A stretch of DNA of 64,000 bases from Microgenomates group bacterium (GTDB taxonomy: Bacteria > Patescibacteriota > Microgenomatia > PFEM01 > JBNASD01). Positions 5,744 through 54,440 of this stretch are shown piece after piece. The first letter of the stretch is position 1, and each line of letters opens with the position of its first letter. Where the stretch lies: the NCBI GenBank assembly GCA_049720225.1, contig JBNASD010000001.1, positions 15,162 to 79,161 on the forward strand. The letters are read 5' to 3'. The translations under genes were made by a program, and so were the position numbers. The notes under the pieces were generated by a model that was given only the letters and a program-made list of their open reading frames with translations, was not told the DNA's origin and searched no databases.

Positions 5744-6529
5744 ATGGTTAAAACTAAAAAAGCAAAAACAGAAGAAAAATTAGAAGAAAAAGCAGAAAAA
5801 ACTTCCTCTTCGGAAATTTCTCTTAAATCATTATTGGAAGCAGGTTGTCATTTTGGTCATCAGGTTCGTCGTTGGCATCCAGCAATGAAACCTTATTTAT
5901 TTGGCGTTCGGGGAGGGGTTCATATTTTTGATTTAGTAAAAACCAAAGAAGGATTAGAAAAAGCCTGTGAATTTATGAAAAAATCCGCTCAAGAAGGGAA
6001 AAGGATTGTTTTTGTGGGTACCAAAAGACAAGCAAAGGCGGTAATTACTGAAGAAGCCAAAAAAATTGGTGTTCCTTATGTGACCGAAAGATGGGTAGGA
6101 GGAACAATTACTAATTGGGAGCAGATTAAAAAAAGCATTGATAAATTAGTTAGAATGAAAGAGGAGCAAGATAAAGGAGAATATAAAAAATATACCAAAA
6201 AAGAGCAAATTCTTCTTAATCGAGAAATTCTTCGTCTAGAAAAGCTTTATGGAGGATTAGTAGGTTTAGAAGATAAACCAGAAATAATTTTTGTCGTTGA
6301 TGTGAGAAAGGAAGATACGGCAGTTGAGGAAGCAAAAAAGAAGGGAGTGACTATTGTTGCTTTGGTTGATTCTGATTCCAATCCTGAGGGAATTGATTAT
6401 GTCATTCCCGGAAATGATGATGCGGTTGGGTCAATAAGATTTATTGTCGGAAAAATCGCCGAAGCAGTTAAAGAAGGAAAAGAAATAAAAGAAAAGAAAG
6501 GAGAAAAAAATGAAAAAAGTAAGTCTTGA
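5744..6529 (+). CDS. rpsB: 30S ribosomal protein S2 (with ~20-aa Lys/Glu-rich N-terminal extension)
   Basis: The core [19 protein letters not shown]...IFDL is typical of S2. Confidence 0.9.
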
Positions 6530-6971
6530 ACAAATCAAAAAATTAAGAGAAAAAACTAAAGCCGGGGTAATGGATTGCCGGCAGGCACTGGAAGAATGTG
6601 ACGGTGATGAGAAAAAAGCCATCGAATGGCTAAGAAAAAAGGGACTTTCCTCCGCCTGTAAAAGAGAAGAAAGAGAAACCAAACAAGGAATTGTTGAGGC
6701 TTATGTTCATCCTGATAGCCGAATTGCGTCAGTGGTAGAATTAACTTGTGAAACCGATTTTGTGGCCCGGACCGATGAATTTAAAAAATTAGCCCATGAG
6801 TTGGCGCTCCAGGTGGCCGCGATGGCGCCGGAAAGCGTGGAGGAACTTTTAAAACAACCTTGGATTAGAGATCAAAAAATTTTGGTTGGTGATTTGATTA
6901 AAGAAACCATTGCCAAAGTAGGAGAAAATATTGTCGTTAAAAGAATTTATCGCTGTGAATTAGGAAAATGA
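6510..6971 (+). CDS. tsf: elongation factor Ts (short form, 153 aa)
   Basis: UBA-like N-terminus [21 protein letters not shown]; C-terminal [11 protein letters not shown]. It overlaps the rpsB end. Confidence 0.8.
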
Positions 6972-8718: not shown

Positions 8719-9051
8719 ATGAAAAGTAAAAATTTGGAATTACAAAAAATTATTAAAGCTACCCAATTATTAAAAGGTAAACAAGTTATTATTTTTGGTT
8801 CTCAAGCTAAGGAAAAAGGAAAAAAGGGAAGCGATCTTGATCTTTGTATATTGATAAAAAAAGGAGAAGATCCTTTGAAATTTCAGCGCCAATTTCGTCT
8901 TAAATTATGGGAATTAGGCTATCAATGGATTTGGCCTTTAGATATTCATGTTTATCCTGAAGATTTTTTTAACGATAGACTTTCTCTTCAAGACCCGTTT
9001 ATAAAAGAGATTAAAAAAGGAGTAAAAATATATGACCAAAGTAATATTTAA
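8719..9051 (+). CDS. minimal nucleotidyltransferase (MNT/MntA-like antitoxin)
   Basis: 110 aa. NTase motif GSQAKEKGKKGSDLDLCILI (GS...DxD). Confidence 0.7.
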   Translation: MKSKNLELQKIIKATQLLKGKQVIIFGSQAKEKGKKGSDLDLCILIKKGEDPLKFQRQFRLKLWELGYQWIWPLDIHVYPEDFFNDRLSLQDPFIKEIKKGVKIYDQSNI

Positions 9052-9433
9052 AAAATTAGCAGAAGAATGGATTAAGGCAGCAGAACATGATTTAGATTGG
9101 GCAGAGGGAAGCTTAAAATTAAAAAAATTTGCCGGTGTTTGTTTTTTATCTCAGCAAGTAGTTGAAAAGTCGCTTAAGGCTTTTTTGTACTCTCATGGTG
9201 AAAATTTAAAAAAAATACACGACTTAGATAAACTTTTAATTTTAGCAATTAAGTATGCTCCTGAATTAGAAAGATTTAAAATAGCAACCGCTACTCTTTC
9301 TAGTTATTATTTACAAACCCGCTATCCCGATATTGGTAATATTGAGATTTTTAATAAAAAAAAATTAGCTGAAGAAGCTTTTGGTTGGGCAAAAGAAATT
9401 TTTAATATTATTAAAAATAAAATTAAAAAATAA
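9032..9433 (+). CDS. HEPN domain protein (HepT-like toxin partner)
   Basis: 133 aa. HEPN (PF05168-type) C-terminal ...LSSYYLQTRYPD. It overlaps the MNT gene by 20 nt, and its TAA is immediately followed by the proS ATG. Confidence 0.7.
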   Translation: MTKVIFKKLAEEWIKAAEHDLDWAEGSLKLKKFAGVCFLSQQVVEKSLKAFLYSHGENLKKIHDLDKLLILAIKYAPELERFKIATATLSSYYLQTRYPDIGNIEIFNKKKLAEEAFGWAKEIFNIIKNKIKK

Positions 9434-20526: not shown

Positions 20527-21363
20527 ATGAGTAATCTTTCTGTGGGGATTGTTGGTTTACCCAATAGCGGAAAAAGCACCCTCTTTAATACCTTACTAAA
20601 AAGACAGGTTGCTCAGGTAGGAAATTATCCTTTTACTACTATTGAACCTAACGTTGGAATAGTGGAAGTTCCTGATGATAATTTAATTGCTTTAATGGAT
20701 TTGATTAACCCGGAAAAAGTAATTCCGGCGACGGTAAAATTTATTGATATTGCTGGTTTAGTAAAAAATGCTCATCAAGGAGAAGGCTTAGGAAATCAAT
20801 TTTTAGCTAAAATTCGGGAAGTTGATGCGATTGTTCATATTATCCGGGGATTTGAAAATCCCGATATTCCTCATTTTTACGGCTCAATTGATCCTTTACG
20901 AGATAAAGAAATCGTTGATTTAGAGCTAGAATTAGCAGGGATAAAAAAACCAACGATTTATGTTTTAAATTGTTCTTTAAAAGAAGGGCAAAAATTTAAT
21001 TTTCCTGGATGGTTAACGATTGATGCCCAAACAGGAGAGGGAATTGATGAATTAATTAAAAATGCTTATAATGTTTTGGGTTTAATTACTTTTTATACGA
21101 TTAAAGGAGGAAAAGAAATTACCGCCTGGGCAATTAAAAAAGGAACCACCGCTTTAGAAGCGGCAGGAAAAGTTCATAGCGATATGGCGAAGGGATTTAT
21201 TAAAGCGGAGGTAATTGGAATAGAAGAACTTTTAGAAATTGGTCAGCAAGAGAAGGGAAAAGGGGTATGGACAAAAGCTAAAAGTTTAGGTAAAATAAGA
21301 CTTGAAGGTCGCGATTATCAAGTCAAAAACGGCGAGGTAATCGAATTTAAATTTAATATTTAA
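20527..21363 (+). CDS. ychF: ribosome-binding ATPase YchF (short form with reduced helical insertion)
   Basis: G1 GLPNSGKST, NYPFTTIEPN, a C-terminal TGS domain. 278 aa against ~360 typical. Confidence 0.85.
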   Translation: MSNLSVGIVGLPNSGKSTLFNTLLKRQVAQVGNYPFTTIEPNVGIVEVPDDNLIALMDLINPEKVIPATVKFIDIAGLVKNAHQGEGLGNQFLAKIREVDAIVHIIRGFENPDIPHFYGSIDPLRDKEIVDLELELAGIKKPTIYVLNCSLKEGQKFNFPGWLTIDAQTGEGIDELIKNAYNVLGLITFYTIKGGKEITAWAIKKGTTALEAAGKVHSDMAKGFIKAEVIGIEELLEIGQQEKGKGVWTKAKSLGKIRLEGRDYQVKNGEVIEFKFNI

Positions 21364-24906: not shown

Positions 24907-25590
24907 TTAGCCTACGATTTTCTCCAAACTTCCATTCAAAATATTTTCCAAATCATACCAGGATTTTTTCAGTCGATGATCGGTTACCCGATTTTGGGGG
25001 AAATTATAAGTACGAATTTTTTCTGCCCTCATTCCTCGGCCAATAGCCGAGCGATAACCAGCAATCGTTTGTTCTTTTTTAAGCTCTTCTGCTTCCCAAA
25101 TTTTACTTCGTAAAAGCTGTAAGGCTAATTCTCGATTTTGAAATTGTGATCTTTCTTGTTGACAAACAACCGTAATTCCCGTTGGTTTATGAGTTAATCT
25201 TACAGCGGAATTAACCTTTTGAACGTTTTGTCCTCCCTGAGAAGAGGCGCGGAAAAATTGCCAATCCAAATCGGCGGGATTAATTTTAATTTCTTCTTCT
25301 TTAATTTCCGGTAAAACAACAACCGTTGCGGTTGAAGTGTGAATTCGGCCATATCTTTCCGTTTTGGGAACTCGTTGAACTCGGTGGACTCCTGATTCGT
25401 TTTTTAGTTTTTGATAAATATCAGGAGGACCGCTGATTTTTAAAATTCCACCACTTAAAATTTCTGCCTTCCATCCCTGTTTTTCGGCAAAGCGATAATA
25501 CATTCTTAACAAATCATCGGCCCAAATTTTGGCTTCTTCACCACCGACACCAGGACGAATTTCAATGATGACAAAGCGAGAATTATTCAT
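24907..25590 (-). CDS. class I peptide chain release factor, RF1-like (PxT = PKT, GGQ), lacking N-terminal domain 1
   Basis: 227 aa. It aligns to E. coli RF1 from about residue 105 to the end (EIRPGVGGEEA..., GVHRVQRVPKTE, SSQGGQNVQK, RTYNFPQNRVTDHR). There is no room for an N-terminus, because rpmE ends 10 nt upstream. Confidence 0.75.
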   Translation of the reverse strand: MNNSRFVIIEIRPGVGGEEAKIWADDLLRMYYRFAEKQGWKAEILSGGILKISGPPDIYQKLKNESGVHRVQRVPKTERYGRIHTSTATVVVLPEIKEEEIKINPADLDWQFFRASSQGGQNVQKVNSAVRLTHKPTGITVVCQQERSQFQNRELALQLLRSKIWEAEELKKEQTIAGYRSAIGRGMRAEKIRTYNFPQNRVTDHRLKKSWYDLENILNGSLEKIVG

Positions 25591-25600
25591 AATTTATTTT

Positions 25601-25918
25601 TTATTCTTTAGAAGGTTTTTTGATTCTTCTTTTAAGCATTTCTTTGAGGCTAAGCGGTTTTTCTTCTTTGATTTCTGCTTTTCGGCGATCTTTTTTCTTT
25701 TGGTAGGGTTTAGCTTTAGCTAAGGCGACTTTCTTTTGGAATTTTTCCACTCTTCCTTGGGTATCAACAAATTTCATTTTACCAGTAAAAAAGGGGTGAC
25801 AATGAGAACAAACCTCAACGTTAATTTCTGGCAGAGTAGAACCCACGGTAAAAGTATTTCCACAAGTACAAGTTACTTTGGCTTCGGGATACCATTTTGG
25901 ATGAATATTTGGTTTCAT
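25601..25918 (-). CDS. rpmE: 50S ribosomal protein L31 with ~40-aa Lys-rich C-terminal extension
   Basis: [23 protein letters not shown]...[11 protein letters not shown] is the L31 core. The tail [23 protein letters not shown]... is extra. Confidence 0.85.
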
Positions 25919-25931
25919 AAAATTAATTTTA

Positions 25932-27194
25932 TCATAAGTTAAAATATTTTAAAAGAGAAGATTGGGGAATAGTTTCTTGGGTTTTATTTTGGAGATTTTT
26001 AATAGTTACTTTCTTAGATTTTACTTCATCAGGGCCGATAATAAGAACAAAGAGAATGCCTTGTTTATCCGCATATTTTAACTGTTTTTCTAATTTTTCT
26101 GGTTGAAGGTATATTTCCGTAGGAACTTTTGCCTGGCGAAGAAAACGAGCAATTTTTAAAGAATTTCGATATAAGGATTCATCAAAAACAGTAACTAAAA
26201 CTTTAGTAGGAAGGGGATTAATTTTTGGCCATTTACCAAATTTTTCTAAAACTTGCTGAATTACTTTATCCCCAGCGGCAAAACCAACACCGGGAATTCG
26301 TGGCCCCCCAATAACTTCTACTAAGTTGTCATATCTTCCTCCTCCCAATATTGCTCGAAATTCTCCTTTTCGGTCGCGAGCTTCAAAAACAGTTCCCGTA
26401 TAATAATCTAGTCCTCTCACAATTAAGGGATCAAACTCTACATATTTTTCCACTCCTAAATCTTTTAAAGTAGAAAAAATTGCGGTTAATTCTTCTGATT
26501 CACCGGCAAAATCTTTATCCTTAAGAATTTTTTTAAGATCGGCAATTTGCAGTTTATCAAGACCAATTTCTTTTAACCAGGCCTCCCATTCTTCTTCTTT
26601 CATTTTTTCTTTTTTATCGATTGCTTTAAAGATTTGAGGAATTTTTGATTTAGGAATTTCGATTAAATCAAGTTTTTTTTCCATTAATTGCCGATGGTTC
26701 ACTTTTATTACTACTTGAGAGGGAGTTAACCCCACCTCTTTTAAAAATTCCACCGCTAAGGCAATAACTTCTGCATCCGCTTCTGGCGATTCCCACCCTA
26801 ACAAATCAACATCCCATTGATAAAATTCCCTGGTTCTTCCTTTTTGGGGTTTTTCGTAACGCCAGCGCGGACCAATAGAAAACCAACGAATTGGTCGAGG
26901 AAGTGTTTCTTGTTTTTGGGCTACCATTCGCGCCAAAGTGGGGGTTAATTCTGGTCTTAAGGCTAATTTTTCACCACTTTTGGTTTTGACTATAAAAGTT
27001 TGTTCTTTAACTAATTCCTCCCCAGATTTTGCGGCATATAAAGCAAAAGATTCTAAACAAGGACCTTCATATTCTTGGTACCCAAAAAGGCGAGAAACAG
27101 AACGCATTTTTTCAAAAAGCCACCGGCGGGTAGCCATTTGCGGAGGATAAAAATCTTCAAACCCACGGACTAAGGAAAATTTTAATTTTTTCAT
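25932..27194 (-). CDS. hisS: histidyl-tRNA synthetase
   Basis: Class II motifs ([19 protein letters not shown]; GGGRYD). 420 aa. Confidence 0.9.
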
Positions 27195-27234
27195 TTTTAT
27201 TGATTATAAAATTTACCCCTTTAAGTGTCAATTT

Positions 27235-42572: not shown

Positions 42573-44279
42573 ATGACACCTGCCCGGAATATTGCCGATA
42601 TTTTAGCGGAAAAGGGAGTATTAACTAAAAAAGATCTTGAAAAAGTTAAACTTGAGGAGATAAATACGGGAAAGCCGGTTAAAGAAATTCTTAAAGAATT
42701 TCATCTTGCAGATGAAGAACAAATTGCTCAAGCAGAAGGAGAATTGTGGAAAGTTCCTTATGTGAATTTAGCGGAAACTCCCTTTTCTCCTCAAGCTTTA
42801 AATTTTTTATCTCAAGCGGTAGCGGAAGAATATAATGTAATTCCTTTTCAATTTGACTCTTCAACTAATGAACTTGCTGTCGCTTTAGAAAATCCCCTAG
42901 ATTTAGATTTAATTAAATTTTTAGAAAAAAAGACAGGAACAAAAATAAAACCTCACATTGCTTCCCCTACCCAAATTAAAGAAGCGATTGAATCTCATTA
43001 TGGTCAAAGCTTGGTAGCAGAAATTAAGGCCACTTTGGGAGAAACTAAAGTTACTCCTCAACAACCTCAACCTACTTATATTCCACGACCGGGAGAGGTT
43101 TTGAGGGAAGAAAAAATTGCCCGAGTAGTTAATATTATTTTAGAATTTGCGGTAAAATCGAGAGCGTCTGATATTCATATTGAACCTCAAGAAGAAAATA
43201 CTCGGGTAAGATATCGAATTGACGGCATTCTTCATGAGAAATTGGTTTTACCTAAATATCTTCATGATGCGGTTGTTTCCCGGGTAAAAATTCTTTCGGG
43301 AATGAGAATTGATGAAAAAAGGGTACCTCAGGATGGTCGATTTAGCTTTAAAGCAGAGGATCAGGAAATTGATTTGCGGGTTTCTTCTTTGCCGACTGTC
43401 CATGGAGAGAAGATTGTGATGAGGTTACTTAAAAAAACTGGTCAGGTTCCTGATTTGCCAGAATTAGGCTTAAGAGGAAGGGCCTTAAAAGATTTACAAG
43501 AAGCAATTTTAAGACCTCACGGAATTATTATTGTTTGCGGACCTACCGGTTCAGGAAAGACGACTACCCTATATTCAGTTCTTTCGCGAATTAATACTCC
43601 CCGCGTAAATATTATTACTTTGGAAGATCCCGTGGAATACGAAATTCCCGGCGTTAATCAAGTTCAAGTTAATCCGGCGGCGGGTTTAACTTTTGCTTCG
43701 GGAATGCGCTCTTTTTTGCGGCAAGATCCTAACATTATTATGGTAGGAGAAATTAGAGATCGAGAAACTACGGAATTAGCGGTTCAGGCTTCTTTAACTG
43801 GACATTTGGTTTTTTCTACTCTTCACACTAACAATGCTGCTCAGGCAATTCCTCGCCTTTTGGATTTAGGAGCAGAACCATTTTTACTTGCTTCCTCAGT
43901 TACCTGTTTAGTGGCTCAGCGAATTTGTCGAAGAATTTGTCCAGATTGTAAGGAAGAATATTCTCCTCCACCAGAAGTAATTGAAGATATTAAAAAAGTC
44001 TTAGGAAAACTTTTTCCTCCTCAAAAAGAAACAAAACTTTATCGGGGTAAAAAATGCGCTACCTGTAACAACACAGGTTATTTAGGAAGGATAGGAATTT
44101 TTGAAGTATTGCCAATTAGTGAAAAAATTGCTAGACTGATTTTAGAAAGAGCGTCTGCCCGAGAGATTGAAAAACAGGCAAGAGAAGAAGGGATGGTTAC
44201 TATGAAGCAAGATGGATATTTAAAAGTTTTAGAGGGGATTACTACTATTGAAGAAGTTTTAAGGGTAGCGCAAGAGTAA
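42573..44279 (+). CDS. pilB: type IV pilus assembly ATPase PilB/GspE
   Basis: N-terminal GSPII_E_N domain, Walker A GPTGSGKTTT, tetracysteine CRRICPDCK...CATCNNTG. Confidence 0.9.
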   Translation: MTPARNIADILAEKGVLTKKDLEKVKLEEINTGKPVKEILKEFHLADEEQIAQAEGELWKVPYVNLAETPFSPQALNFLSQAVAEEYNVIPFQFDSSTNELAVALENPLDLDLIKFLEKKTGTKIKPHIASPTQIKEAIESHYGQSLVAEIKATLGETKVTPQQPQPTYIPRPGEVLREEKIARVVNIILEFAVKSRASDIHIEPQEENTRVRYRIDGILHEKLVLPKYLHDAVVSRVKILSGMRIDEKRVPQDGRFSFKAEDQEIDLRVSSLPTVHGEKIVMRLLKKTGQVPDLPELGLRGRALKDLQEAILRPHGIIIVCGPTGSGKTTTLYSVLSRINTPRVNIITLEDPVEYEIPGVNQVQVNPAAGLTFASGMRSFLRQDPNIIMVGEIRDRETTELAVQASLTGHLVFSTLHTNNAAQAIPRLLDLGAEPFLLASSVTCLVAQRICRRICPDCKEEYSPPPEVIEDIKKVLGKLFPPQKETKLYRGKKCATCNNTGYLGRIGIFEVLPISEKIARLILERASAREIEKQAREEGMVTMKQDGYLKVLEGITTIEEVLRVAQE

Positions 44280-44281
44280 AA

Positions 44282-45337
44282 ATGAAAATAGAAGAATTAC
44301 TAGAAATAACCATCAATAAAAAAGCGTCTGATCTTCATTTAATTGTTGGCTTGCCTCCTACTGTAAGGGTAAATGGAGAATTATTTTCTATACCGGGAAA
44401 GGAGACTTTAACGGAAAGTTTAGTAAAGGATCTGATTTTTAGCATTTTAAGCGAAGAACAAAAAGAAATTCTTTTAGTTAATAAAGAACTGGACTTTTCT
44501 TTTGATTATCAAGGGAGAGGAAGGTTTAGAGTTAACGCTTATCATCAAAAAGGAACATTAGCGGCGGCGTTTCGTCTTTTGCCCCCCACCATTCCTTCCA
44601 TTAAAGAAGTAAATCTTCCGGATATTTGTTATTCTTTTGCCGAACTAAAACAAGGATTTATTTTAGTTACTGGACCCACGGGTCATGGAAAATCAACTAC
44701 TCTTGCAGCCACCATTGAGGAAATTAATAAAAATAGACCGGTGCATATAGTCACTATTGAGGATCCTATCGAATATGTTTTTTGTCCCAAGAAAGCAATT
44801 ATTTCTCAGAGAGAGATTCGGACTGATACCCATTCCTGGCAAATTGCCTTACGGTCTTGTTTGCGTGAGGATCCAGACGTGGTAATGATTGGCGAAATGA
44901 GAGATTACGAAACGATTGCCTCTGCCTTAACTATTGCCGAAACGGGTCATTTGGTTTTTGCTACCCTTCACACTAATTCTGCGGCTCAAACGGTGGATAG
45001 AATTATTGATGTTTTTCCTGAAGAACAACAGACTCAAGTAAGGATGCAACTTTCTAATACTTTAGAAGCAATTCTTTCTCAAAGACTCTTGCCTTGTCTA
45101 GATGGAGGAAGAATTCCTGCTTTTGAAATCTTAACCGCTACACCAGCGGTAAGGACCGCTATTCGTGAAGGAAAAACCCATCTTATTGATAATATTATTC
45201 AAACTTCAGTAGAGTTAGGAATGAGAACTTTAGAAATGGATCTAGCTTGGTTAGTTAAACAGGGAAAAATTGATTTAGAAACCGCAAAAGCGTATGCCTT
45301 AAAGCCAGAAGAACTAATACGGTTAGTTAGGAAATAA
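44282..45337 (+). CDS. pilT: twitching-motility retraction ATPase PilT
   Basis: 351 aa. GPTGHGKSTT; the TIEDPIEY, AIRE-like region. Confidence 0.9.
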   Translation: MKIEELLEITINKKASDLHLIVGLPPTVRVNGELFSIPGKETLTESLVKDLIFSILSEEQKEILLVNKELDFSFDYQGRGRFRVNAYHQKGTLAAAFRLLPPTIPSIKEVNLPDICYSFAELKQGFILVTGPTGHGKSTTLAATIEEINKNRPVHIVTIEDPIEYVFCPKKAIISQREIRTDTHSWQIALRSCLREDPDVVMIGEMRDYETIASALTIAETGHLVFATLHTNSAAQTVDRIIDVFPEEQQTQVRMQLSNTLEAILSQRLLPCLDGGRIPAFEILTATPAVRTAIREGKTHLIDNIIQTSVELGMRTLEMDLAWLVKQGKIDLETAKAYALKPEELIRLVRK

Positions 45338-45339
45338 AA

Positions 45340-46545
45340 ATGGAAAAATTTGATTACAAAGCTAAAGATGAAAGTGGAAAAACAATTCAGGGAGTAGTTG
45401 AAGCGTCGTCAGAGAAAGAAGCAGTTAAAATTCTCCGCGCTCGTAAGCTTCTGGTAATTTCTTTAAAACAAAAAAAAATAAATGCTATCGAAGAACTTCG
45501 TGAAAGAGCTTTTTCAAGAATCAGTTTAAACGATAAAGTTAATTTTACGCGTCAATTTTCAACAATGATTACTGCCGGTCTTCATATTACCGAGGCGTTG
45601 GAAATTTTAGAACTTCAATCCCCTCCAGGATTAAGAAGAGTGGTTAGAGAAGTATTAAAAGATATTGAAGGAGGAAAGAGTTTGTCCCAAGCAATAGAAA
45701 AACATCCAGAAGCATTTGATACTCTTTATGTGTCTTTGGTAAAAGCAGGAGAAACCGCTGGAGTTTTGGAAAAGGTTTTGTCTCGCTTAGCAGATAATAT
45801 GGAGAAACAAAAAGAATTTCAGGGGAAGGTAAAGGGAGCAATGATATATCCAGCGATTGTAATTTTTGGAATGATTATAGTGGCGGGAATTATGGTAATT
45901 TTTGTTTTACCAAAAATGATGACTATTTATGAAGAATTTCAGGCACAACTTCCTACTTCGACAAAAATCCTTTTAGCCATTTCTAAATTCGCTACTAAAT
46001 TTTGGTGGTTAATGTTAGCTTTTGTTTTTGGCGGAATAATTGGATTAAGAATTCTTTTTCGAAGCCCAGAATTCAAAAAAGAATTTGATCGATTTTTGTT
46101 TCGAATACCAATTATTGGTAATTTAAGACAGAAGTCGGTTTTAACAGAATTTACCCGTACTTTAGGATTATTAACTAACGCAGGAATTTTAATTGTTGAT
46201 GCTTTACATGTTGCTTCCCGATCTTTGGGAAGTAAATTTTACCAAGAGGCAGTTTTAAAAGCAGCAGATCAAGTGGAAAGAGGAGTACCTTTAGCAACTG
46301 CCTTAGCAGAAATAGGTATTTTCCCCCCCATTTTGCCGCAAATGATTTCCGTAGGAGAAGAAACAGGAAAAATCGATGAGGTTTTGTTTAAAATTTCTCA
46401 TTATTTTGAGCAAGAAACCGAAGCGGCAATTAAAGCCTTGACAAGCGCCATGGAGCCAATTATTATGATTATATTAGGAATTGGAGTGGCATTCTTAATG
46501 ATTTCAGTAATAATGCCAATTTATAACTTAACCTCGCAATTCTAA
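45340..46545 (+). CDS. pilC: type IV pilus platform protein PilC/GspF
   Basis: 401 aa, two GspF repeats, 3 TM. Confidence 0.9.
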   Translation: MEKFDYKAKDESGKTIQGVVEASSEKEAVKILRARKLLVISLKQKKINAIEELRERAFSRISLNDKVNFTRQFSTMITAGLHITEALEILELQSPPGLRRVVREVLKDIEGGKSLSQAIEKHPEAFDTLYVSLVKAGETAGVLEKVLSRLADNMEKQKEFQGKVKGAMIYPAIVIFGMIIVAGIMVIFVLPKMMTIYEEFQAQLPTSTKILLAISKFATKFWWLMLAFVFGGIIGLRILFRSPEFKKEFDRFLFRIPIIGNLRQKSVLTEFTRTLGLLTNAGILIVDALHVASRSLGSKFYQEAVLKAADQVERGVPLATALAEIGIFPPILPQMISVGEETGKIDEVLFKISHYFEQETEAAIKALTSAMEPIIMIILGIGVAFLMISVIMPIYNLTSQF

Positions 46546-46627
46546 ATTAGGCCTTGACAAAGAAGATTTAAAAATTATAAAAAGATTTATAAGAAAAAAT
46601 GATAAAGAAAGGAGGTGAGAAAAAAGA

Positions 46628-47188
46628 ATGAAAAAAGTAAAAGGTTTTACCATGATTGAGTTGTTGATTGTAATTGCGGTTTTAGGAATTTTAGCAGTAG
46701 CTGTTTTAGCAGCTATTAATCCTATAGAACAAATAAATCGAAGTAGAGATACTGGGAGTCGTTCTGATGCGGAACAACTTATAGGGGCTATTGACCGCTT
46801 CTACACCGCTAATGGTTATTATCCTTGGGTTGATAGTGCCGATAACCCTGATTATGATCAACCATGGAGAAAAGTAGATATGACTTGGGTAGATAATTTA
46901 GGAAATTCTGTACTTACCAAACTTTCTGATCCTACTCAAGGAACAGCAGAAATTAAAGAATCGTTTGTGGATAGAATTACTGATTCAGAATATAATTCAC
47001 TTTATATTTATAACAACGGTCAACAGGGAGGAAGTACTTATGTCTGTTTTATGCCAAAATCTGCTAACTTTTTGAATGAGGCCAACAGGAGAGCGGGACA
47101 AAATTGTGCTGGATTGCCACCCGATTTACAAACAGCAGGGTGTGACAATATTTGCCCGGGCGGAAAGTGCTTTTCATGTTTGCCATAA
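46628..47188 (+). CDS. prepilin-type pilin (186 aa)
   Basis: Class III signal KGFTMIELLIVIAVLGILA (G/F cleavage, Glu+5). Six Cys at the C-terminus. Confidence 0.8.
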   Translation: MKKVKGFTMIELLIVIAVLGILAVAVLAAINPIEQINRSRDTGSRSDAEQLIGAIDRFYTANGYYPWVDSADNPDYDQPWRKVDMTWVDNLGNSVLTKLSDPTQGTAEIKESFVDRITDSEYNSLYIYNNGQQGGSTYVCFMPKSANFLNEANRRAGQNCAGLPPDLQTAGCDNICPGGKCFSCLP

Positions 47189-47247
47189 AATCTGGAAAAG
47201 AATAAAGGCGAGAAAGAAGACTTAGTTGAATAATTAATAATCAAAGA

Positions 47248-48030
47248 ATGACTTTCTCTTTACCATTAGTATTGTGTGTCTTGGGGCTTTGTGTAGGAAG
47301 TTTTGTTAATTGCTTAGTTTGGCGGCTACATCAGGGATTATCGCCAATTGGGGGGAGGTCGATTTGTCCGTCTTGTAAAAAACAGATTCGTTGGTATGAT
47401 AATATTCCGTTGGTTTCTTTTGTGTTGCTTAAAGGGCGGTGTCGAGATTGTCATTCGCCTATCCCCTATCATTATCCGTTAGTGGAATTATCTGGTGGAA
47501 TTTTAACTTTAATAGTTTTTTATTCTCAAGGAATTTTTCTGAAGGAGAATTTTTTGTTTTTAATTTTCAATTTATTAATTACTTACCTTCTTTTGGCAAT
47601 TTTTCTTTCTGACTTGCTTTATATGACTATCCCTGACCAAATAGTTTTCTCAGGAATAATAATTTCTTTAGTTTTTTTATTTTTAACATATCCCCTTTCA
47701 GAAATTTTTAAGTTTTTAATTTCTGGTTTTGTTTTTGCTGGATTTTTTTATTTATTGCGTTTATTTACCAAAGGCAAAGGAATGGGTTTAGGGGATGTAA
47801 AATTAGCTGGATTAATGGGTTTAGTTTTAGGTTGGCCAAAAATTTTGGTTGCTTTTTATTTTGCCTTCTTGACAGGAGCAATCGTTGGTGTCATACTGAT
47901 TTTATTAAGAAAAAAAAGGTGGGGTGAACATATTCCATTTGGGCCATTTCTAAGTGGAGCAACTTTTATTAATTTAATTTGGGGAAATGAAATATTAAAA
48001 TGGGCAGAAAAAATTTTGGGCTTACTTTAA
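47248..48030 (+). CDS. pilD: prepilin peptidase PilD (A24) with N-terminal Zn-binding CxxC...CxxC
   Basis: CPSCKKQ...CRDCHSPI; multi-TM; the DxxxGxGD region (GMGLGDVKLAG). Confidence 0.85.
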   Translation: MTFSLPLVLCVLGLCVGSFVNCLVWRLHQGLSPIGGRSICPSCKKQIRWYDNIPLVSFVLLKGRCRDCHSPIPYHYPLVELSGGILTLIVFYSQGIFLKENFLFLIFNLLITYLLLAIFLSDLLYMTIPDQIVFSGIIISLVFLFLTYPLSEIFKFLISGFVFAGFFYLLRLFTKGKGMGLGDVKLAGLMGLVLGWPKILVAFYFAFLTGAIVGVILILLRKKRWGEHIPFGPFLSGATFINLIWGNEILKWAEKILGLL

Positions 48031-48797
48031 TAGAACTATTAATAGTACTCGCTACGTTAGCAATTTTAATTACGTTATCTTTTTTTACTTTTAAAACCCA
48101 AATGGCCAAAGGTAGAGATGGTCGACGAAAGGCGGATTTAAATAAACTTCAGAAAGCATTAGAAGATTATATGAATGACCATGGCTGTTATCCTAATCCT
48201 GAGGAAATTACTACCAACAATATTATTTGTGGCGGATCGTTCTCTCCTTATTTAACTCAACTCCCTTGTGATCCGATTAATAATTCTTACTATAATTTTT
48301 TTTATTCCTATGATCAGAGAGAAGATTGTAAAACGTGGTATAAAATTTACGCAAAGTTTGAATACGACAAAGATTTAATTATCGAAAAAGTTGGTTGTAA
48401 AAATGGATGTGGACCGGTTAAAAATTATAATTATTGGGTTTCTAGTCCTAATATGACTGAAGTTAATCAGATTGCCGAAGCAGAAGATTGGTGGCCAAAA
48501 GAAATAGCCGTTAAAAATACGTTAGTAACACCGTCTTCTTCTATTTCGCCTTCCTTAACTCCATCTTTTACAGCAACGCCTACTTTATTTTCGACTCCCT
48601 CTCTTATTCTTACTCCTCCTTTAATTTGTGATTCTGGCTATTACTCTTATTGCCAAAACGGAGATTGTATATATTATGGAACAATGCCCCCCCTTCACTG
48701 TAATATTTATTATTGCTGTATAGGAGAAAATAATTGTAATTGTGCTCAGGGGGCGTGTAGAAATGAATTTGGTCAACCGATAAATAATTGCTATTAA
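48000..48797 (+). CDS. prepilin-type pilin with S/T/P-rich linker and Cys-rich C-terminal module (candidate tip adhesin)
   Basis: GLTLIELLIVLATLAIL signal; a pilin core YKIYAKFEYDKD; a TLVTPSSSISPSLTPSFTATPTLFSTPSLILTPP linker; then ICDSGYYSYCQNGDCIYYGT...CCIGENNCNCAQGACRNEF...NNCY. It overlaps the pilD 3' end by 31 nt. Confidence 0.7.
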   Translation: MGRKNFGLTLIELLIVLATLAILITLSFFTFKTQMAKGRDGRRKADLNKLQKALEDYMNDHGCYPNPEEITTNNIICGGSFSPYLTQLPCDPINNSYYNFFYSYDQREDCKTWYKIYAKFEYDKDLIIEKVGCKNGCGPVKNYNYWVSSPNMTEVNQIAEAEDWWPKEIAVKNTLVTPSSSISPSLTPSFTATPTLFSTPSLILTPPLICDSGYYSYCQNGDCIYYGTMPPLHCNIYYCCIGENNCNCAQGACRNEFGQPINNCY

Positions 48798-48812
48798 TAA
48801 ATAAATAAAAAT

Positions 48813-49259
48813 ATGGAAAATAATCAAGATAAAGGCTTTACTTTAATTGAACTTTTGGTGGTAATTACAATTTTAGGAATTTTAGCGGTGATTGGTTTGG
48901 GAAGTTTTTCTTCTTCACAAATGAAAGGACGAGATGCTCAAAGAAAAAACGATCTTTCCCAAATTCAAAAAGCCTTAGAAATGTATTACAATGATAATGG
49001 ATCTTATCCTTTAACCAATCAAATGCAAACACTTTTAAACACCGGTGGGTCATGGACAGCCGCCGGAGGAAGTACTATTTATATGAAAACTGTACCTAAA
49101 GGACCAAAAGGAGATGTTTATTGTTATGAAAGTGATGGAAGTTATTATAGACTTTATGCTAAACTGGAAAATGTGAGAGATCCAAAAATTATTACACCGC
49201 AAAGTAGTATATGCGCTAGTTATAATTACGGAGTTTCCAGTAGTAACATAACGCCATGA
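48813..49259 (+). CDS. prepilin-type pilin paralog A
   Basis: [19 protein letters not shown]; shared core [27 protein letters not shown]; Cys pair. Confidence 0.8.
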
Positions 49260-49332
49260 ATAAAAAATTTTTAACCAAAAAAGGTTTTACTTTAATTGAA
49301 CTTTTAGTGGTGATTTCTATTATTGGGATTTT
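49256..49332 (+). repeat. 77-nt direct repeat (pilin 5' end), second copy at 49756..49832, 76/77 identical
   Basis: Direct comparison: ATGAATAAAAAATTTTTAAC[C/A]AAAAAAGGTTTTACTTTAATTGAACTTTTAGTGGTGATTTCTATTATTGGGATTTT. Confidence 0.9.
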
Positions 49333-49735
49333 AACCGCTTTAATTATGGTTAATTTTAATGCTGCTCGAGAAAGAGCAAGAGATGCTCAAAGAAAATCGG
49401 ATTTGGATCAAATTAAAAAGGCATTGAGGATGTATTATAATGATTTCGGAGTTTACCCTCAGAATGATTCAAGTAATAAAATTAGAGGATGTAATCCGTT
49501 AGTGACTTTTAATTGGGGAACTCCATTTACCTGTGGCGGGATGAGTTATATGAAAATTCTTCCTCAAGATCCTAGTGAGGGAAGAACTTATAAATATCTT
49601 CAAACATCTTCGGGTAATGATTTTTGCTTATGGACTACATTAGAAAACAAATCAGATGGTGATATTAATAAATCTAAAAACCGCTGTTTAAATTGTTCTG
49701 TAGGAACATATGATTACGTGGTATGTGCAGATTAA
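49256..49735 (+). CDS. prepilin-type pilin paralog B
   Basis: [26 protein letters not shown]. The ATG overlaps the upstream TGA (ATGA). Core [27 protein letters not shown]. Confidence 0.8.
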
Positions 49736-49755
49736 TTTTAAAAAAAATTTAAAAG

Positions 49756-50193
49756 ATGAATAAAAAATTTTTAACAAAAAAAGGTTTTACTTTAATTGAA
49801 CTTTTAGTGGTGATTTCTATTATTGGGATTTTGGCTTCATTAGCTTTAGCGAGTTACAGCAGTGCTCAAAAACAAGCCCGTGATGCCCAAAGAAAAAGTG
49901 ATTTAAATCAATATAGAATTGCTTTAGAAAATTATGCGGTAGCTAATAATGGCCTTTATCCAATTTTGACTTATCCTAATCCGATAGGAAATATTTGCCC
50001 CTCCCCTCTTAGCGGTAAATTTATTAGTAGTTGTATTGATGATCCTTTGTCAGATAGAAACTATTATTACGGCTCAAACGGGACAATATATATTCTTTAT
50101 GCTAATTTAGAAAAAGGAGGTTATTGGTATATTTGTTCTAATGGAAAATCAGGAGAGGTTTCTTCCTCTCCAAATTTAAATCTTTGCCAATGA
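49756..50193 (+). CDS. prepilin-type pilin paralog C
   Basis: The first 77 nt are identical to paralog B except for 1 nt. Core [19 protein letters not shown]. Confidence 0.8.
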   Translation: MNKKFLTKKGFTLIELLVVISIIGILASLALASYSSAQKQARDAQRKSDLNQYRIALENYAVANNGLYPILTYPNPIGNICPSPLSGKFISSCIDDPLSDRNYYYGSNGTIYILYANLEKGGYWYICSNGKSGEVSSSPNLNLCQ

Positions 50194-50606
50194 AAAAAAA
50201 AGGTTTTACTTTAATTGAACTTTTAGTTTCGCTATCGATTATTGCTATTTTAATAGGGTTAGCATTGGTTTCTTATCAAGGTGCTCAAAGATCTTCTCGG
50301 GATGGGAGAAGAAAAGCAGATTTAGAGCAAATTCGTAGCGCTTTGGAAATGTGTCGAACTGATACCGGAAGTTATCCTTCGGGAACCTTAGTTTCCGGTA
50401 ATAATATAACTTGCGGATCGGTGACTTATCTTACTATTCCTTCTGACCCTCTTTCTGACCGTCAATATGTCTATACTAATATAGATAGAACTTCCTATAC
50501 CCTCTGTGCTGCTTTAGAAAATGGAGCAGGAACAGTTACTGGATGTGGTTCGTGTGCTAAACCCAATAGTTCTGTTGTTTGTAATTATAAAGTGACTAAT
50601 CCTTAA
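50190..50606 (+). CDS. prepilin-type pilin paralog D
   Basis: [21 protein letters not shown]. The ATG overlaps the upstream TGA (ATGA). Core RDGRRKADLEQIRSALEM. I place the start at this ATG; the listed ORF begins at 50184 with a TTG. Confidence 0.8.
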   Translation: MKKKGFTLIELLVSLSIIAILIGLALVSYQGAQRSSRDGRRKADLEQIRSALEMCRTDTGSYPSGTLVSGNNITCGSVTYLTIPSDPLSDRQYVYTNIDRTSYTLCAALENGAGTVTGCGSCAKPNSSVVCNYKVTNP

Positions 50607-50610
50607 ATGA

Positions 50611-51111
50611 ATGAAAAAAAATCTTTTTTTAAATTTTGGGTTTACTTTAATTGAACTTCTTGTTGTTATTTCTCTTATCGGAATTCTTTTTGGGTTTGGA
50701 GTGGCTCAGTATGTTCAATTTAATCGTCGCCAGGTAGTTGAACAAACCGCTTTAGATTTAAAAAATAATCTTCGTTTAGCGCAAACCCAAGCTTTAGGAG
50801 GAAATAAACCAGTAGGTTGTTCTTTTTTACTTGGATATAAAGTAGTTTTTTTTCAAGGAAGCGTTGAAAATAATACTCCCGATGGTTATCTTATTAAAGC
50901 AATTTGTTCAGAAGGAGAAATAGGAGAAAAAAGATTTACTTTTCCTTTGGTGGTAAGATTTTCTCCCCTCCCCTCCCCTCCTTCGGTAGTTTTTAAAGTT
51001 TTGGGACATGGAACCGATTTAGAAAATGAATTGGAAATTAAATTAAAAGGGTTTAATAACGATTCTTATATTAAAACGGTTATTATTACTTCATCAGGAG
51101 AAATTAGATAA
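50611..51111 (+). CDS. minor pilin (GspH/FimT-like pseudopilin)
   Basis: [18 protein letters not shown]; 166 aa. Confidence 0.65.
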   Translation: MKKNLFLNFGFTLIELLVVISLIGILFGFGVAQYVQFNRRQVVEQTALDLKNNLRLAQTQALGGNKPVGCSFLLGYKVVFFQGSVENNTPDGYLIKAICSEGEIGEKRFTFPLVVRFSPLPSPPSVVFKVLGHGTDLENELEIKLKGFNNDSYIKTVIITSSGEIR

Positions 51112-51489
51112 ATGAAGGATAAAAAGGGACAAGCATTGTTTGAAGTAGTAATTGCTATTGGGGTAATTTTGATTTTGGTGGTTGCTTTAATTATTACTGC
51201 TACTTATTCTTTAAGGAATGCGGAATTCTCTCGAAGTCAAATGCTAGCAACGAAATATGCGCAGGAAGCAATAGAAAAGATTCGTTTGTTTAGAGATAAT
51301 AATCCTTGGAATACATTTATTCTTCAGTGTAACTCTTTTGACTTAGGAATGAATTTACCTTCAAATTTTTCTTTAACAAGGCAATGTTTTTGTCTTTCTG
51401 ATATTTGTGAGGTTAAGATTGTTATTAATTGGCAAGACAGTAAAGGAAATCATAAATCAGAATTAACCACTAAAATTACGAAAAAATGA
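51112..51489 (+). CDS. minor pseudopilin (GspI/PilV-like)
   Basis: KGQALFEVVIAIGV, i.e. G/Q with Glu+5. 125 aa. Confidence 0.55.
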   Translation: MKDKKGQALFEVVIAIGVILILVVALIITATYSLRNAEFSRSQMLATKYAQEAIEKIRLFRDNNPWNTFILQCNSFDLGMNLPSNFSLTRQCFCLSDICEVKIVINWQDSKGNHKSELTTKITKK

Positions 51490-51995
51490 AAAAAAACGGC
51501 TTTACTTTATTAGAAATGATGATTGTGATTACTATTTTAGCCTTAATTGCGGTTGTGGGAAGTGGTTCTTTTTTCTCTATTTTACGAGGATCAACTAAGA
51601 CTAAAAATCTTTCTTTAGTAAAACAAAATGGTGATTACGCCTTATCAGTAATGGAAAGAATGATTAGAAATGCTCGGAGTTTAAAAGCTCCAACAACTAG
51701 CGGGCCGACCGATTCAATTTTAATTGTTAATCCCGACGGTGGGGAAACTCTTTTTAAATGTGATTCAACTACTGATCCACCAACTATCTCTTCAGGAAGT
51801 GCTTCTTTAATTAGCAATGAAGTAAAAGTCAGTTCTGATTGTAATACCTTTTTTAATGTGGTATTGGGAAGAAAAGAATTAGAATCAACCCGAATAGATA
51901 TTTCTTTTACTTTAGTCCCCAATAAAGAAATAGAGCGGCCTGAAGAAAAAGCAGAAATTAACTTTAAAACTTCAGTGACAATGAGAAATTATTGA
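51486..51995 (+). CDS. minor pilin
   Basis: KNGFTLLEMMIVITILALIA; 169 aa. Confidence 0.7.
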   Translation: MKKNGFTLLEMMIVITILALIAVVGSGSFFSILRGSTKTKNLSLVKQNGDYALSVMERMIRNARSLKAPTTSGPTDSILIVNPDGGETLFKCDSTTDPPTISSGSASLISNEVKVSSDCNTFFNVVLGRKELESTRIDISFTLVPNKEIERPEEKAEINFKTSVTMRNY

Positions 51996-52033
51996 CAAGG
52001 TTATTTAATGATTGTTATGATTAAGATAATTGA

Positions 52034-52861
52034 ATGAAAAATAGAGGGCAAAGTTTAATAATTATCCTTTTAATTGCCGCCGTTGGTTTAACGATTGGTT
52101 TAGCGGTAATTTCTCGTTCTGTAACCGATATAAATATTTCCCAACAAGAGGAGGAGTCAGCTCGTGTTTTCTCCGTTGCTGAGGCAGGAATAGAGGAAGC
52201 GATTAGAGCTGGCGATGTTCCTTCTGGAGGGATTACTATCGGAGAGATAACAGCGACAGTAGAGAAACAATCATTAGGAGGAGGTCAAGAATTTGTTTTT
52301 CCTGGTGAATATGAAGCGGGTGATATTCAAACTCTTTGGTTAATTGGCCATGATGAACAAGAGAATTTAAACGAAAATATAAGGTATAATGGTTCTAGTC
52401 TTATTTTTTATTGGGGTAAAGAAGGACAAAGTGCCGACCAAAATACCACCCCTGCTTTAGAAGTGACTTTAATTTATAAAGATGGAAATACCTTCAAAAT
52501 TAAAAGAGGGGTTTATGATCCTAATTCTTCGCGAAGAGCAAGCAATCATTTTGATGCGCCCGATACTGGTACACCTCCTTATGTGGTTGATGGAAAAAAA
52601 TTTCAATTTAAAAAGGAAAACTTTGGACTGGTAACAGGAACTATTCCTTATTTAGTAAGGTTTCGTTTGATTTATAATAATGAACCACAAATAATAGGTG
52701 TTAAGGGAACCACCAATCTTCCTCAACAAGGAATTTGTTTTATTTCTACCGCTACCTCTCCCAATGGAATTACTCGTCGAGTAAAGCAATGTAATCTTTA
52801 TAAGTCACCTCCAGGAATTTTTGATTATGTTTTATATTCTGAAGAAAATTTAGCAAAATAA
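52034..52861 (+). CDS. large minor pilin lacking Glu+5 (PilX/GspK-like)
   Basis: NRGQSLIIILLIAAVGLTIGLAV signal-like N-terminus with no Glu at +5. 275 aa. Confidence 0.5.
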   Translation: MKNRGQSLIIILLIAAVGLTIGLAVISRSVTDINISQQEEESARVFSVAEAGIEEAIRAGDVPSGGITIGEITATVEKQSLGGGQEFVFPGEYEAGDIQTLWLIGHDEQENLNENIRYNGSSLIFYWGKEGQSADQNTTPALEVTLIYKDGNTFKIKRGVYDPNSSRRASNHFDAPDTGTPPYVVDGKKFQFKKENFGLVTGTIPYLVRFRLIYNNEPQIIGVKGTTNLPQQGICFISTATSPNGITRRVKQCNLYKSPPGIFDYVLYSEENLAK

Positions 52862-52870
52862 CCTGCCCAT

Positions 52871-53884
52871 ATGGAAATTTTTGGTTTAGATATTGGTTCC
52901 CATACCATTAAACTTGTCCAACTAACTAAAAAACAAGATAAATATGAGCTTATTGCTTTTCATTCTGCTGAAACTCCTCCTCGGGGATTAAATTCTGATG
53001 CAGAAAGTGATTTAAATAATTTAGCAGAAATCATTAAAAAAATTCATCAAGAAGCAAAAGTAAAAACCAAAAATGTAGTTAGCGCTCTTTCCCAAGATCA
53101 GGTTTATACTCGATTGATTAATCTTCCTCCTCTTTCGGAAAGCGAATTAGAATCTGCCTTAAAATGGGAGGCAGAACAGTATGTCCCCCTTCCATTAGAA
53201 GAAGTAATTTTGTCTCATCAGGTAGTAGGAAAGAAGATTGAAGAAGGAAAGGAAAAAATTGAAGTAATTCTTGCGGCTGCTCCCACTAGATTGGTAGAAA
53301 AATTGATTAAAGTTCTCAAAACCGCCGGATTAACTCCTGTAAGTTTAGAAATGGAGATTGCTGCTGCCGCTCGAAGTGTTGTTTATCCTGAAATTAAAAG
53401 AGCAATGTTGATTGATCTAGGAGCAAAAGCTACTGATTTAGCAATTATTGAAGAAGGAAAAATTGCCTTAGTTCATTCTTTACCTACCGGCGGAGAAGCT
53501 TTAACGAGAGCCTTAGAATTTGAATTAGGATTAGAAACTATACAAGCAGAAGCTTACAAAAAGGCTTATGGGTTAGAAAAAGAAAAGCTAGAAGGAAAAA
53601 TTAGCGAAGCGATTACCCCGGTTTTAGAAAAAATTACTAATGAAATAGAAAAAACAATTAATTTTTATCAAAGTCAACAAAAAACAATTGATCAAATTAT
53701 TTTAATAGGAGGAACCGCTAATTTGCCAGAAATAAGTAGTTTTATGGCTAAAAAAATTGGTTTAGAAGTTCAAGTAGGTAATCCTTTTGCCCGAATAATT
53801 AATAGTAATCTAGCCGCTAAAATTTCCTCTGAAATGTTTCCCTTATATGCAGTGGCGATTGGTTTAGCAATGAAAGAAATTTAA
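52871..53884 (+). CDS. pilM: type IV pilus assembly protein PilM (actin-like ATPase fold)
   Basis: MEIFGLDIGSHTIKLVQL; 337 aa. Confidence 0.85.
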   Translation: MEIFGLDIGSHTIKLVQLTKKQDKYELIAFHSAETPPRGLNSDAESDLNNLAEIIKKIHQEAKVKTKNVVSALSQDQVYTRLINLPPLSESELESALKWEAEQYVPLPLEEVILSHQVVGKKIEEGKEKIEVILAAAPTRLVEKLIKVLKTAGLTPVSLEMEIAAAARSVVYPEIKRAMLIDLGAKATDLAIIEEGKIALVHSLPTGGEALTRALEFELGLETIQAEAYKKAYGLEKEKLEGKISEAITPVLEKITNEIEKTINFYQSQQKTIDQIILIGGTANLPEISSFMAKKIGLEVQVGNPFARIINSNLAAKISSEMFPLYAVAIGLAMKEI

Positions 53885-53894
53885 CTTTAAAAAG

Positions 53895-54440
53895 ATGGAA
53901 AACATTGATTTTCTTCAGGAATTTAAAAAAAAAGAAAAAATAAAGGAAAAATACTCTCCCTTTATTAAAAAAGGATTTTTGTTTTTTGCTTTTCTTTATT
54001 TATTAACTGTTTTTACAGTTTTCTTTTTCTTTCTTTATTATAACCAAGAAAGCAAAAAAGTTTCTTTCTTAATAGAAGAGAAAAAGAATAGAATTAAACA
54101 ATTAGAAAAAAGGGAATCACTTCAAGTTTTAATTAAACAAAGAATCTCTTTTTTGAGCAAAATAATTAATTCCCGGAAAATAGATTTTGTAAATAAAGTT
54201 GCCTATTTAGCTTCTTTAGAAGAAAAAAATAATATTATTTTTAAAAAAATAGAATTTAAAGAGAATGGAGTGGTTTTAGTAAGTGGTACTACGTCGGACG
54301 TAAAAATTTTTAGAAATTTTTTAAAAAATTTAGAAAATGACTCCTATTTTGATCAAATTGATGTTGACTCTATAAAACGCGGAAAAGATGGAAGTTATGA
54401 CTTTAGTCTTTCGCTTGGAAAAAATGAAGAAAAAAAATAG
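53895..54440 (+). CDS. PilN-like bitopic membrane protein
   Basis: Short cytoplasmic N-terminus, one TM, a coiled-coil periplasmic part. Placed after pilM. Confidence 0.55.
   Translation: MENIDFLQEFKKKEKIKEKYSPFIKKGFLFFAFLYLLTVFTVFFFFLYYNQESKKVSFLIEEKKNRIKQLEKRESLQVLIKQRISFLSKIINSRKIDFVNKVAYLASLEEKNNIIFKKIEFKENGVVLVSGTTSDVKIFRNFLKNLENDSYFDQIDVDSIKRGKDGSYDFSLSLGKNEEKK

Follow-up and report, generated by a model that had tools for sequence, protein, structure and literature searches.

A probable housekeeping release factor 1 without domain 1 in a Microgenomates-group bacterium

Introduction

Class-I release factors are usually described as four-domain proteins, and what domain 1 does in vivo, through L11 contact and RF3-driven recycling, continues to be debated on the basis of E. 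coli mutants. An E. coli RF1 from which domain 1 had been removed was engineered in the laboratory and, as far as it is recounted in PMC1586002, codon-specific release in vitro was intact, truncated RF1 worked in vivo, and domain 1 was required to stimulate RF3 (Mora et al., 2003). Furthermore, dissociation of E. coli RF1 requires RF3 while RF2 dissociates spontaneously (PMC5995542), and small genomes lack prfC, which is dispensable (PMC1586002). RF1 is also reportedly inactive on E. coli ribosomes without L11 (reviewer comment, PMC1586002), and so the loss of this contact is not obviously harmless.

Two groups of natural relatives also lack parts of canonical RF1. PrfH, or RFH (TIGR03072; PDB 7SA4, 9MOR), is a class-I release factor homolog that naturally lacks domain 1 (PMC1586002; PMC6514570), differs from RF1 in the residues that read the stop codon (PMC1586002), recognises codons through a divergent region of its own and invariably has RtcB as a partner. 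The second group, ArfB, ICT1 (mL62) and C12orf65 (mtRF-R), has the GGQ domain but not the codon-reading domains 2/4, and a C-terminal tail is used instead. In a full-text literature search that included papers on release factor evolution and on CPR ribosomes, we found no account of an RF1 lacking domain 1 in CPR/Patescibacteria, nor any statement on prfC in these lineages.

The window analysed here, a stretch of 64,000 nucleotides from a Microgenomates-group bacterium, carries a short prfA gene whose product has domains 2–4, PxT, GGQ and the U1-reading G/E pair in common with canonical bacterial RF1 (PrfA; TIGR00019/NF001859; 1RQ0, 4V63), together with equivalents of Q181, H193 and T194 and the switch-loop region. 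It differs from canonical RF1 in lacking domain 1 (~90–120 residues), a C-terminal helix of ~20 residues and 9–10 residues of the domain-2 hairpin. As far as the engineered E. coli protein is described in PMC1586002, its architecture is the same, but it is a laboratory construct, whereas the short RF1 is natural, conserved, widespread and further trimmed in domain 2 and at the C-terminus. Unlike PrfH it keeps the RF1 decoding residues and has no RtcB nearby, and unlike ArfB and its relatives it has domains 2/4. Our preferred reading, to which we give a probability of about 0.82, is that the gene is a Microgenomates-group (Patescibacteria/CPR) ortholog of prfA with a housekeeping role, the lineage having lost domain 1, the C-terminal helix and the tip of the domain-2 hairpin.

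The short prfA gene and its missing parts

The features of the locus are collected in Table 1. An in-frame stop lies directly 5' of the ATG, and the stop-to-stop frame (24910–25593) is only one codon longer than the open reading frame, so that an N-terminal extension of the gene is impossible; a wrongly chosen start was rejected on the same in-frame stop and on the start position, which is kept in 47 aligned homologs. With the rpmE stop 10 nt upstream, domain 1 has no coding space.

Pfam matches comprise the C-terminal half of PCRF (positions 98–194 of 194) and the whole RF-1 domain apart from its first position (2–116 of 116). The NCBIfam prfA models match from position 101 or 109 to position 335 or 343 with 317–320 bits (101–335 of 347 in one model). 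In the solved RF1 structures the alignment begins at residue 88 for T. maritima (1rq0, E 4e-74), 104 for T. thermophilus, 108 for E. coli and 120 for S. mutans. As such, ~87–119 N-terminal residues, forming the helical domain 1 that interacts with the L11 stalk and RF3, and ~19–25 C-terminal residues are missing relative to the solved structures. Both statements of the earlier note on the gene itself are upheld by these data, namely that the protein follows RF1 from the start of domain 2 through the GGQ domain with a PKT tripeptide (Pfam, NCBIfam and PDB alignments), and that rpmE, 10 nt away, leaves no room for domain 1 (the spacer and the in-frame stop at the ATG).

A smaller deletion of 9–10 residues affects the beta-hairpin of domain 2 (window 25440–25470, residues ~45–52) by comparison with all solved RF1 structures. 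It is common to the Beckwithbacteria-type RF1, while P0135, a short RF1 of 242 aa placed close to the Parcubacteria group in the tree, retains the hairpin loop, and three other loci (L052, L055, L068) have insertions at this site instead.

Table 1. Features of the hisS-rpmE-prfA locus in window coordinates, and residues of the short RF1 with their T. thermophilus RF1 equivalents.
Feature	Position	Strand	Details
Short prfA	24907..25590	(-)	227-aa RF1, ATG start, TAA stop; domains 2, 3 and 4 only, without domain 1 and without the C-terminal helix
Codons G119-G120-Q121, GGQ motif, peptidyl-tRNA hydrolysis	25228..25236	(-)	Invariant in family; GGQ 228-230 of T. thermophilus RF1
Codons P75-K76-T77, RF1-type PxT 'tripeptide anticodon'	25360..25368	(-)	From sequence; P75 and T77 invariant in family
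Codons G16-G17-E18-E19	25534..25545	(-)	Alignment to 4v63/4v4r RF1; G16, G17 and E19 invariant in 47 family members
Spacer, rpmE stop to prfA start	25591..25600	(-)	10 nt; no Shine-Dalgarno-like purine run (sequence)
rpmE (bL31), upstream operon partner	25601..25918	(-)	105 aa; Pfam PF01197, E 2.5e-30; TAA stop at 25603-25601
hisS (histidyl-tRNA synthetase), first gene of likely operon	25932..27194	(-)	Pfam tRNA-synt_His and HGTP_anticodon
Promoter-like TTGACA-17-TATAAT	27203..27231	(-)	12/12 consensus match, 9 nt upstream of hisS ATG; consensus match only
G16			G116 of T. thermophilus RF1 (alignment)
E19			E119 of T. thermophilus RF1 (alignment)
Q72			Q181 of T. thermophilus RF1 (alignment)
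P75-x-T77			P184-V-T186 of T. thermophilus RF1 (alignment)
H84			H193 of T. thermophilus RF1 (alignment)
T85			T194 of T. thermophilus RF1 (alignment)
Q121			Q230 of T. thermophilus RF1 (alignment)

Decoding and catalytic residues and predicted fold

Up to the hairpin deletion, position n of the short RF1 corresponds to n+100 in T. thermophilus RF1, and beyond the deletion to n+109; the decoding and catalytic residues aligned in this way are invariant in 47 family members. In the RF1-70S crystal structures, G116 and E119 of the T. thermophilus protein read U1 of the stop codon, and the tabulated residues as a set read U1, A2 and A/G3 and perform catalysis. The features by which an RF1 is recognised are thus present in the retained part: a PxT rather than the SPF of RF2, the equivalents of G116, E119, Q181, T186, H193 and T194, the catalytic GGQ, the codon-reading superdomain of domains 2/4 and the GGQ domain 3. 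Of the 70 related RF1 loci scanned, 68 have the PxT, a stricter regular expression having failed in the other two. The AlphaFold2 model (mean pLDDT 81.9, low in the GGQ loop only) superimposes in Foldseek on free RF1 (1rq0) with a TM-score of 0.83 and an rmsd of 2.8 A, and on the pre-accommodated ribosome-bound form (6orl) with a TM-score of 0.81.

Short and intermediate forms among relatives

Aligning orthologs from relatives, as the earlier note had proposed, shows the truncation to be lineage-wide. A scan of species-representative genomes yielded 80 loci, and the motif of the first domain-2 strand could be located in 70 RF1 loci; fewer than 45 codons (mostly 7–30) separate the upstream in-frame stop from this strand in 56 of the 70, as against 109–125 residues before the strand in canonical RF1. 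Similarly, the best 120 database homologs are all 222–245 aa long at 70–100% identity, their named sources being Microgenomates, Shapirobacteria and Woesebacteria MAGs, and the starts of the family members line up with one another (MNxN..(I/L)EIR.G.GG in the 47-member alignment).

A longer N-terminus is possible in the other 14 of the 70 loci, and in several of these, including Beckwithbacteria (complete genome CP011210.1) and Levyibacteria, 66–78 residues precede domain 2. Such intermediate RF1s (L050, L053, L054, L060, L074; P0126) retain an N-terminal region that the short RF1 does not have, but they are 55–62% identical to it over domains 2–4 and occupy the same slot next to rpmE, and therefore the short gene is a positional ortholog. 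In L054, from Beckwithbacteria, matches to the prfA models begin only at position 46 or 54, the first ~45–55 model positions being gone and the rest of domain 1 kept. Intermediate forms in the same slot suggest stepwise erosion of domain 1.

A second large family of short RF1s (230–255 aa; model positions 104–340 of 347) is found among Parcubacteria, Paceibacterota and Minisyncoccia, some of its members lying on contigs of 0.8–0.9 Mb. In neighbour-joining bootstraps the Microgenomates short group was monophyletic in 87% and the Parcubacteria short group in 100%, and the two were joined in 0 of 100 replicates. At least two independent complete losses of domain 1 are thus likely, but this count is tentative because the deeper RF1 nodes have only 8–29% support in this fast distance method.

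Stop codons, RF2 and genome streamlining

Among 68 crude gene calls in the window, 49 end in TAA, 15 in TGA and four in TAG. A relaxed need for RF1 through scarce UAG stops (4/68 here) was rejected as a general explanation, since the share of crude gene calls ending in TAG is 19% for the pooled short-RF1 loci (177/912) and 18% for the longer-RF1 loci; at 19% of stops, RF1 activity is needed.

RF2 genes with the SPF motif were found in six related loci (L075–L080), each in a single frame with a domain 1 of ~121 residues, and one of them scored 439 bits against the TIGR00020 cut-off of 370, over model positions 2–353 of 353. The earlier note's statement that TGA is used as a stop agrees with the counts above, and its expectation that an RF2 must exist is upheld among relatives. 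Three MAGs contain a short RF1 as well as a full-length RF2 (JALHYA01, L027 and L075; CAYMZX01, L042 and L077; CAZDKH01, L014 and L079), and because RF2 in the same MAGs retains the whole of domain 1, the trimming is specific to RF1.

This selectivity bears on the idea that the short protein is a real and sole RF1 whose domain 1 was lost through neutral genome streamlining, unrelated to RF3 or to dissociation kinetics. Other translation proteins in the window are indeed trimmed. EF-Ts (6510–6971, plus strand, between rpsB and frr) has 153 aa and matches positions 1–76 of 204 in Pfam EF_TS, its C-terminal part being missing. The YchF-type GTPase (20527–21363, plus strand) has 278 aa, with a G domain at 6–148 and a YchF C-terminal/TGS domain at 186–277. 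Canonical YchF has ~360 aa and a helical insert, and by this measure the GTPase is another trimmed translation-associated protein. Moreover, CPR proteins are reportedly short in general (PMC9297842). Against streamlining stand the complete domain 1 of RF2 in the same genomes and the complete loss in at least two separate RF1 clades, and we regard it as less likely than not.

Two further observations concern RF2. Its continuous frame in the six loci means that the programmed +1 frameshift which regulates prfB in many bacteria is absent there. In addition, the RF1 and RF2 of one MAG (L014/L079, L027/L075, L042/L077) are 77–93% identical in domain 3 over 30-residue windows, with a DNA identity of 69–76% over ~175 nt, and only 20–40% identical in domains 2/4. 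This likeness within single genomes resembles the outcome of old gene conversion, or of concerted evolution, between prfA and prfB; multiple conversion between bacterial class-I release factor genes is, going by its title, the subject of PMC4530459.

Relation to PrfH, ArfB and RF2

The short RF1 scores 317–320 bits with prfA profiles, 209 with prfB, 70 with prfH and 49 with ArfB. The prfA scores fall under the curated cut-offs (320.5 against 400 bits for NF001859; 316.6 against 423.25 bits for TIGR00019), and the shortfall corresponds to the missing domain. In a search of 1.84 billion representative proteins, canonical RF1s of 355–365 aa were 50–55% identical over the whole length of the short RF1.

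Membership of the other families was rejected in each case. For RF2, the tripeptide is PKT and not SPF, and the 209 bits fall short of the TIGR00020 cut-off. For PrfH, the match of 70.4 bits (TIGR03072 cut-off 166.65) is confined to residues 98–194 in domain 3, a PrfH in the PDB aligns over residues 104–195 only (E 2e-15), and the gene upstream is not of RtcB type, the neighbours being rpmE and hisS on that side and a convergent HtrA-type protease downstream. For ArfB, the 48.7 bits (cut-off 100) cover 36 residues of domain 3, and the codon-reading domains 2/4 are present in the short RF1.

It could still be argued that this is an accessory or rescue factor, a paralog of the PrfH or ArfB kind, and that the genome has its canonical full-length prfA at another place, given that PrfH likewise lacks domain 1 (PMC1586002; PMC6514570), that the window covers 64 kb of a contig of 466,595 bp, and that NCBI names the protein 'release factor-like'. 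Such a factor would not be expected to match the prfH and ArfB models in domain 3 only and far under their cut-offs, or to keep every RF1 stop-codon-reading residue where PrfH differs (PMC1586002), or to lie without an RtcB neighbour in a housekeeping hisS-rpmE-prfA operon, the very slot that relatives with N-termini of ~70 residues occupy. Furthermore, no scanned genome held two RF1-type matches, although the narrow peptide patterns used make this a weak test. An accessory role is therefore improbable, and the degenerate prfH-like or ArfB-like copy that had been offered earlier as an alternative (prfH 70 against 167 bits, ArfB 49 against 100, domain 3 only, no RtcB neighbour) finds no support.

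The family appears in databases as 'release factor-like', 'PCRF domain-containing' or 'hypothetical'. Scores below the prfA cut-offs lead to such vague names, and as a result genomes can seem to lack RF1 in their annotation. TIGR00019 is included in marker-gene sets, and genomes with a short RF1 may fail those sets that use it.

Genomic context and the search for a separate domain 1

With spacers of 13 nt (hisS-rpmE) and 10 nt (rpmE-prfA), a hisS-rpmE-prfA operon is likely, and the lack of a Shine-Dalgarno-like run in the shorter spacer makes translational coupling of prfA to rpmE likely as well. Housekeeping genes surround the short prfA (cysS, ychF, rpsF, ssb, two PDZ proteases, hisS, dnaB, lgt), and neither RtcB nor a second RF-like open reading frame was found within the 64-kb window. 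With two exceptions, the RF1 gene of the related RF1 loci has an L31 gene immediately upstream; prmC, encoding the NPPY methyltransferase, was not seen as a consistent prfA neighbour.

We also considered a split gene, in which domain 1 would be encoded separately and join in trans. Direct indications are lacking, but domain 1 is poorly conserved and could escape searches. When 16 RF1 and RF2 domain-1 sequences of relatives were compared with six-frame segments of the window (phmmer and two profiles), no domain-1-like open reading frame was found within the 64 kb; no match was better than E 0.014, and the best was YebC. An E. coli RF1 query matched the short prfA alone in the window. The arrangement is on these grounds very improbable. 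The C-terminal tail of L31 was rejected as a relic of domain 1, the L31 segment not being among the domain-1 matches and L31 of similar length standing beside longer RF1 as well.

The bL31 protein itself has a Lys/Glu-rich tail of ~40 residues after residue 63, where the Pfam domain ends, and L31 reading frames of similar length precede both short and longer RF1 genes in relatives.

Conservation and selection

Against eight relatives the short prfA shows a pS of 0.65–0.81, at which synonymous sites are saturated, and a pN of 0.13–0.31, giving a dN/dS of at most ~0.1–0.14; judged from these sequences, the gene is under strong purifying selection. Although the sequence comes from a metagenome-assembled genome, misassembly, a frameshift or the decay of a pseudogene has a negligible chance of explaining a gene with an intact frame and a dN/dS of ~0.1, whose start and length recur in >100 protein clusters and in 56 species-level genomes drawn from many studies. 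An upstream assembly error hiding domain 1, which the earlier note had named as a possibility, is excluded because the same architecture recurs in dozens of independent assemblies. Its other suggestion, that the lineage uses a minimal RF1, is strengthened by the lineage-wide truncation, the purifying selection, the retained decoding residues and the shared rpmE-prfA slot.

Two observations were made on the related contigs. Those with a Patescibacteria-type rpmE-prfA locus are often deposited under implausible taxon names ('uncultured Gammaproteobacteria', 'Candidatus Bathyarchaeia archaeon', 'Thermodesulfovibrionales', 'Clostridia', 'Vitreimonas sp.'), which suggests placeholder or wrong taxonomy, or contaminated bins. 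In three relatives (L006:10688-10868, L026:10678-10857, L036:3735-3912) the short prfA is intact, and directly after it come a conserved spacer of ~75 nt that forms a hairpin and then a second, diverged copy of the last ~35 prfA codons. The spacer (RNAfold z -4.4 to -6.1) occurs only at this prfA site and has no Rfam match at gathering score. Spacer and partial copy could represent a small insertion bringing a replacement 3' end, or the relic of an element targeting the prfA 3' end.

Proposed mechanism and significance

Most likely the short protein is a working RF1 without L11-stalk or RF3 contact, its release activity being predicted from the residues it retains. The domain 2/4 superdomain would bind the 30S decoding centre, where UAA and UAG would be read by the canonical RF1 residues (G16, E19, Q72, P75-x-T77, H84, T85), and through the switch loop domain 3 would swing the GGQ loop into the peptidyl-transferase centre, releasing the peptide. 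Contact with the uL11 stalk or RF3 through domain 1 would be impossible, so that the short RF1 would have to exit the ribosome alone or with RRF/EF-G. We infer that it is the sole RF1 of its genome, that RF3 is absent in the lineage and that the short RF1 dissociates faster by itself. Loss of domain 1 from RF1 alone would be the expectation for a lineage terminating without RF3, as it is RF1 and not RF2 that needs RF3 to dissociate in E. coli.

On a wider scale, it is possible, with slightly less than an even chance in our estimate, that UAG/UAA termination in large parts of Patescibacteria is carried out by a natural minimal RF1 while RF2 keeps domain 1. Domain 1 would then have been eroded stepwise (~115 to ~70 to ~8 residues), with two or more clades (Microgenomates and Parcubacteria) losing it independently, the cause being a lack of RF3 that would have forced RF1 to become self-recycling.

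A domain-1-less RF1 that is natural, conserved and widespread, and that accompanies a full-length RF2, amounts to a natural experiment on what domain 1 does, and it predicts RF3-independent recycling of RF1 together with unlike behaviour of RF1 and RF2 at the L11 stalk. If the wider reading for Patescibacteria is true, short RF1s could be used as natural tools to study codon recognition and catalysis apart from factor recycling.

Other features of the window

Between an rseP-like gene and proS, adjacent genes for a nucleotidyltransferase of 110 aa and a HEPN-domain protein of 133 aa overlap by 20 nt (8719–9433, plus strand); from sequence, the pair has the layout of an MNT/HEPN toxin-antitoxin system. 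Further along the window, a type IV pilus cluster (42573–55128, plus strand) encodes PilB-like and PilT-like ATPases, PilC, a prepilin peptidase and PilM/N/O, as well as several pilins with N-terminal methylation motifs.
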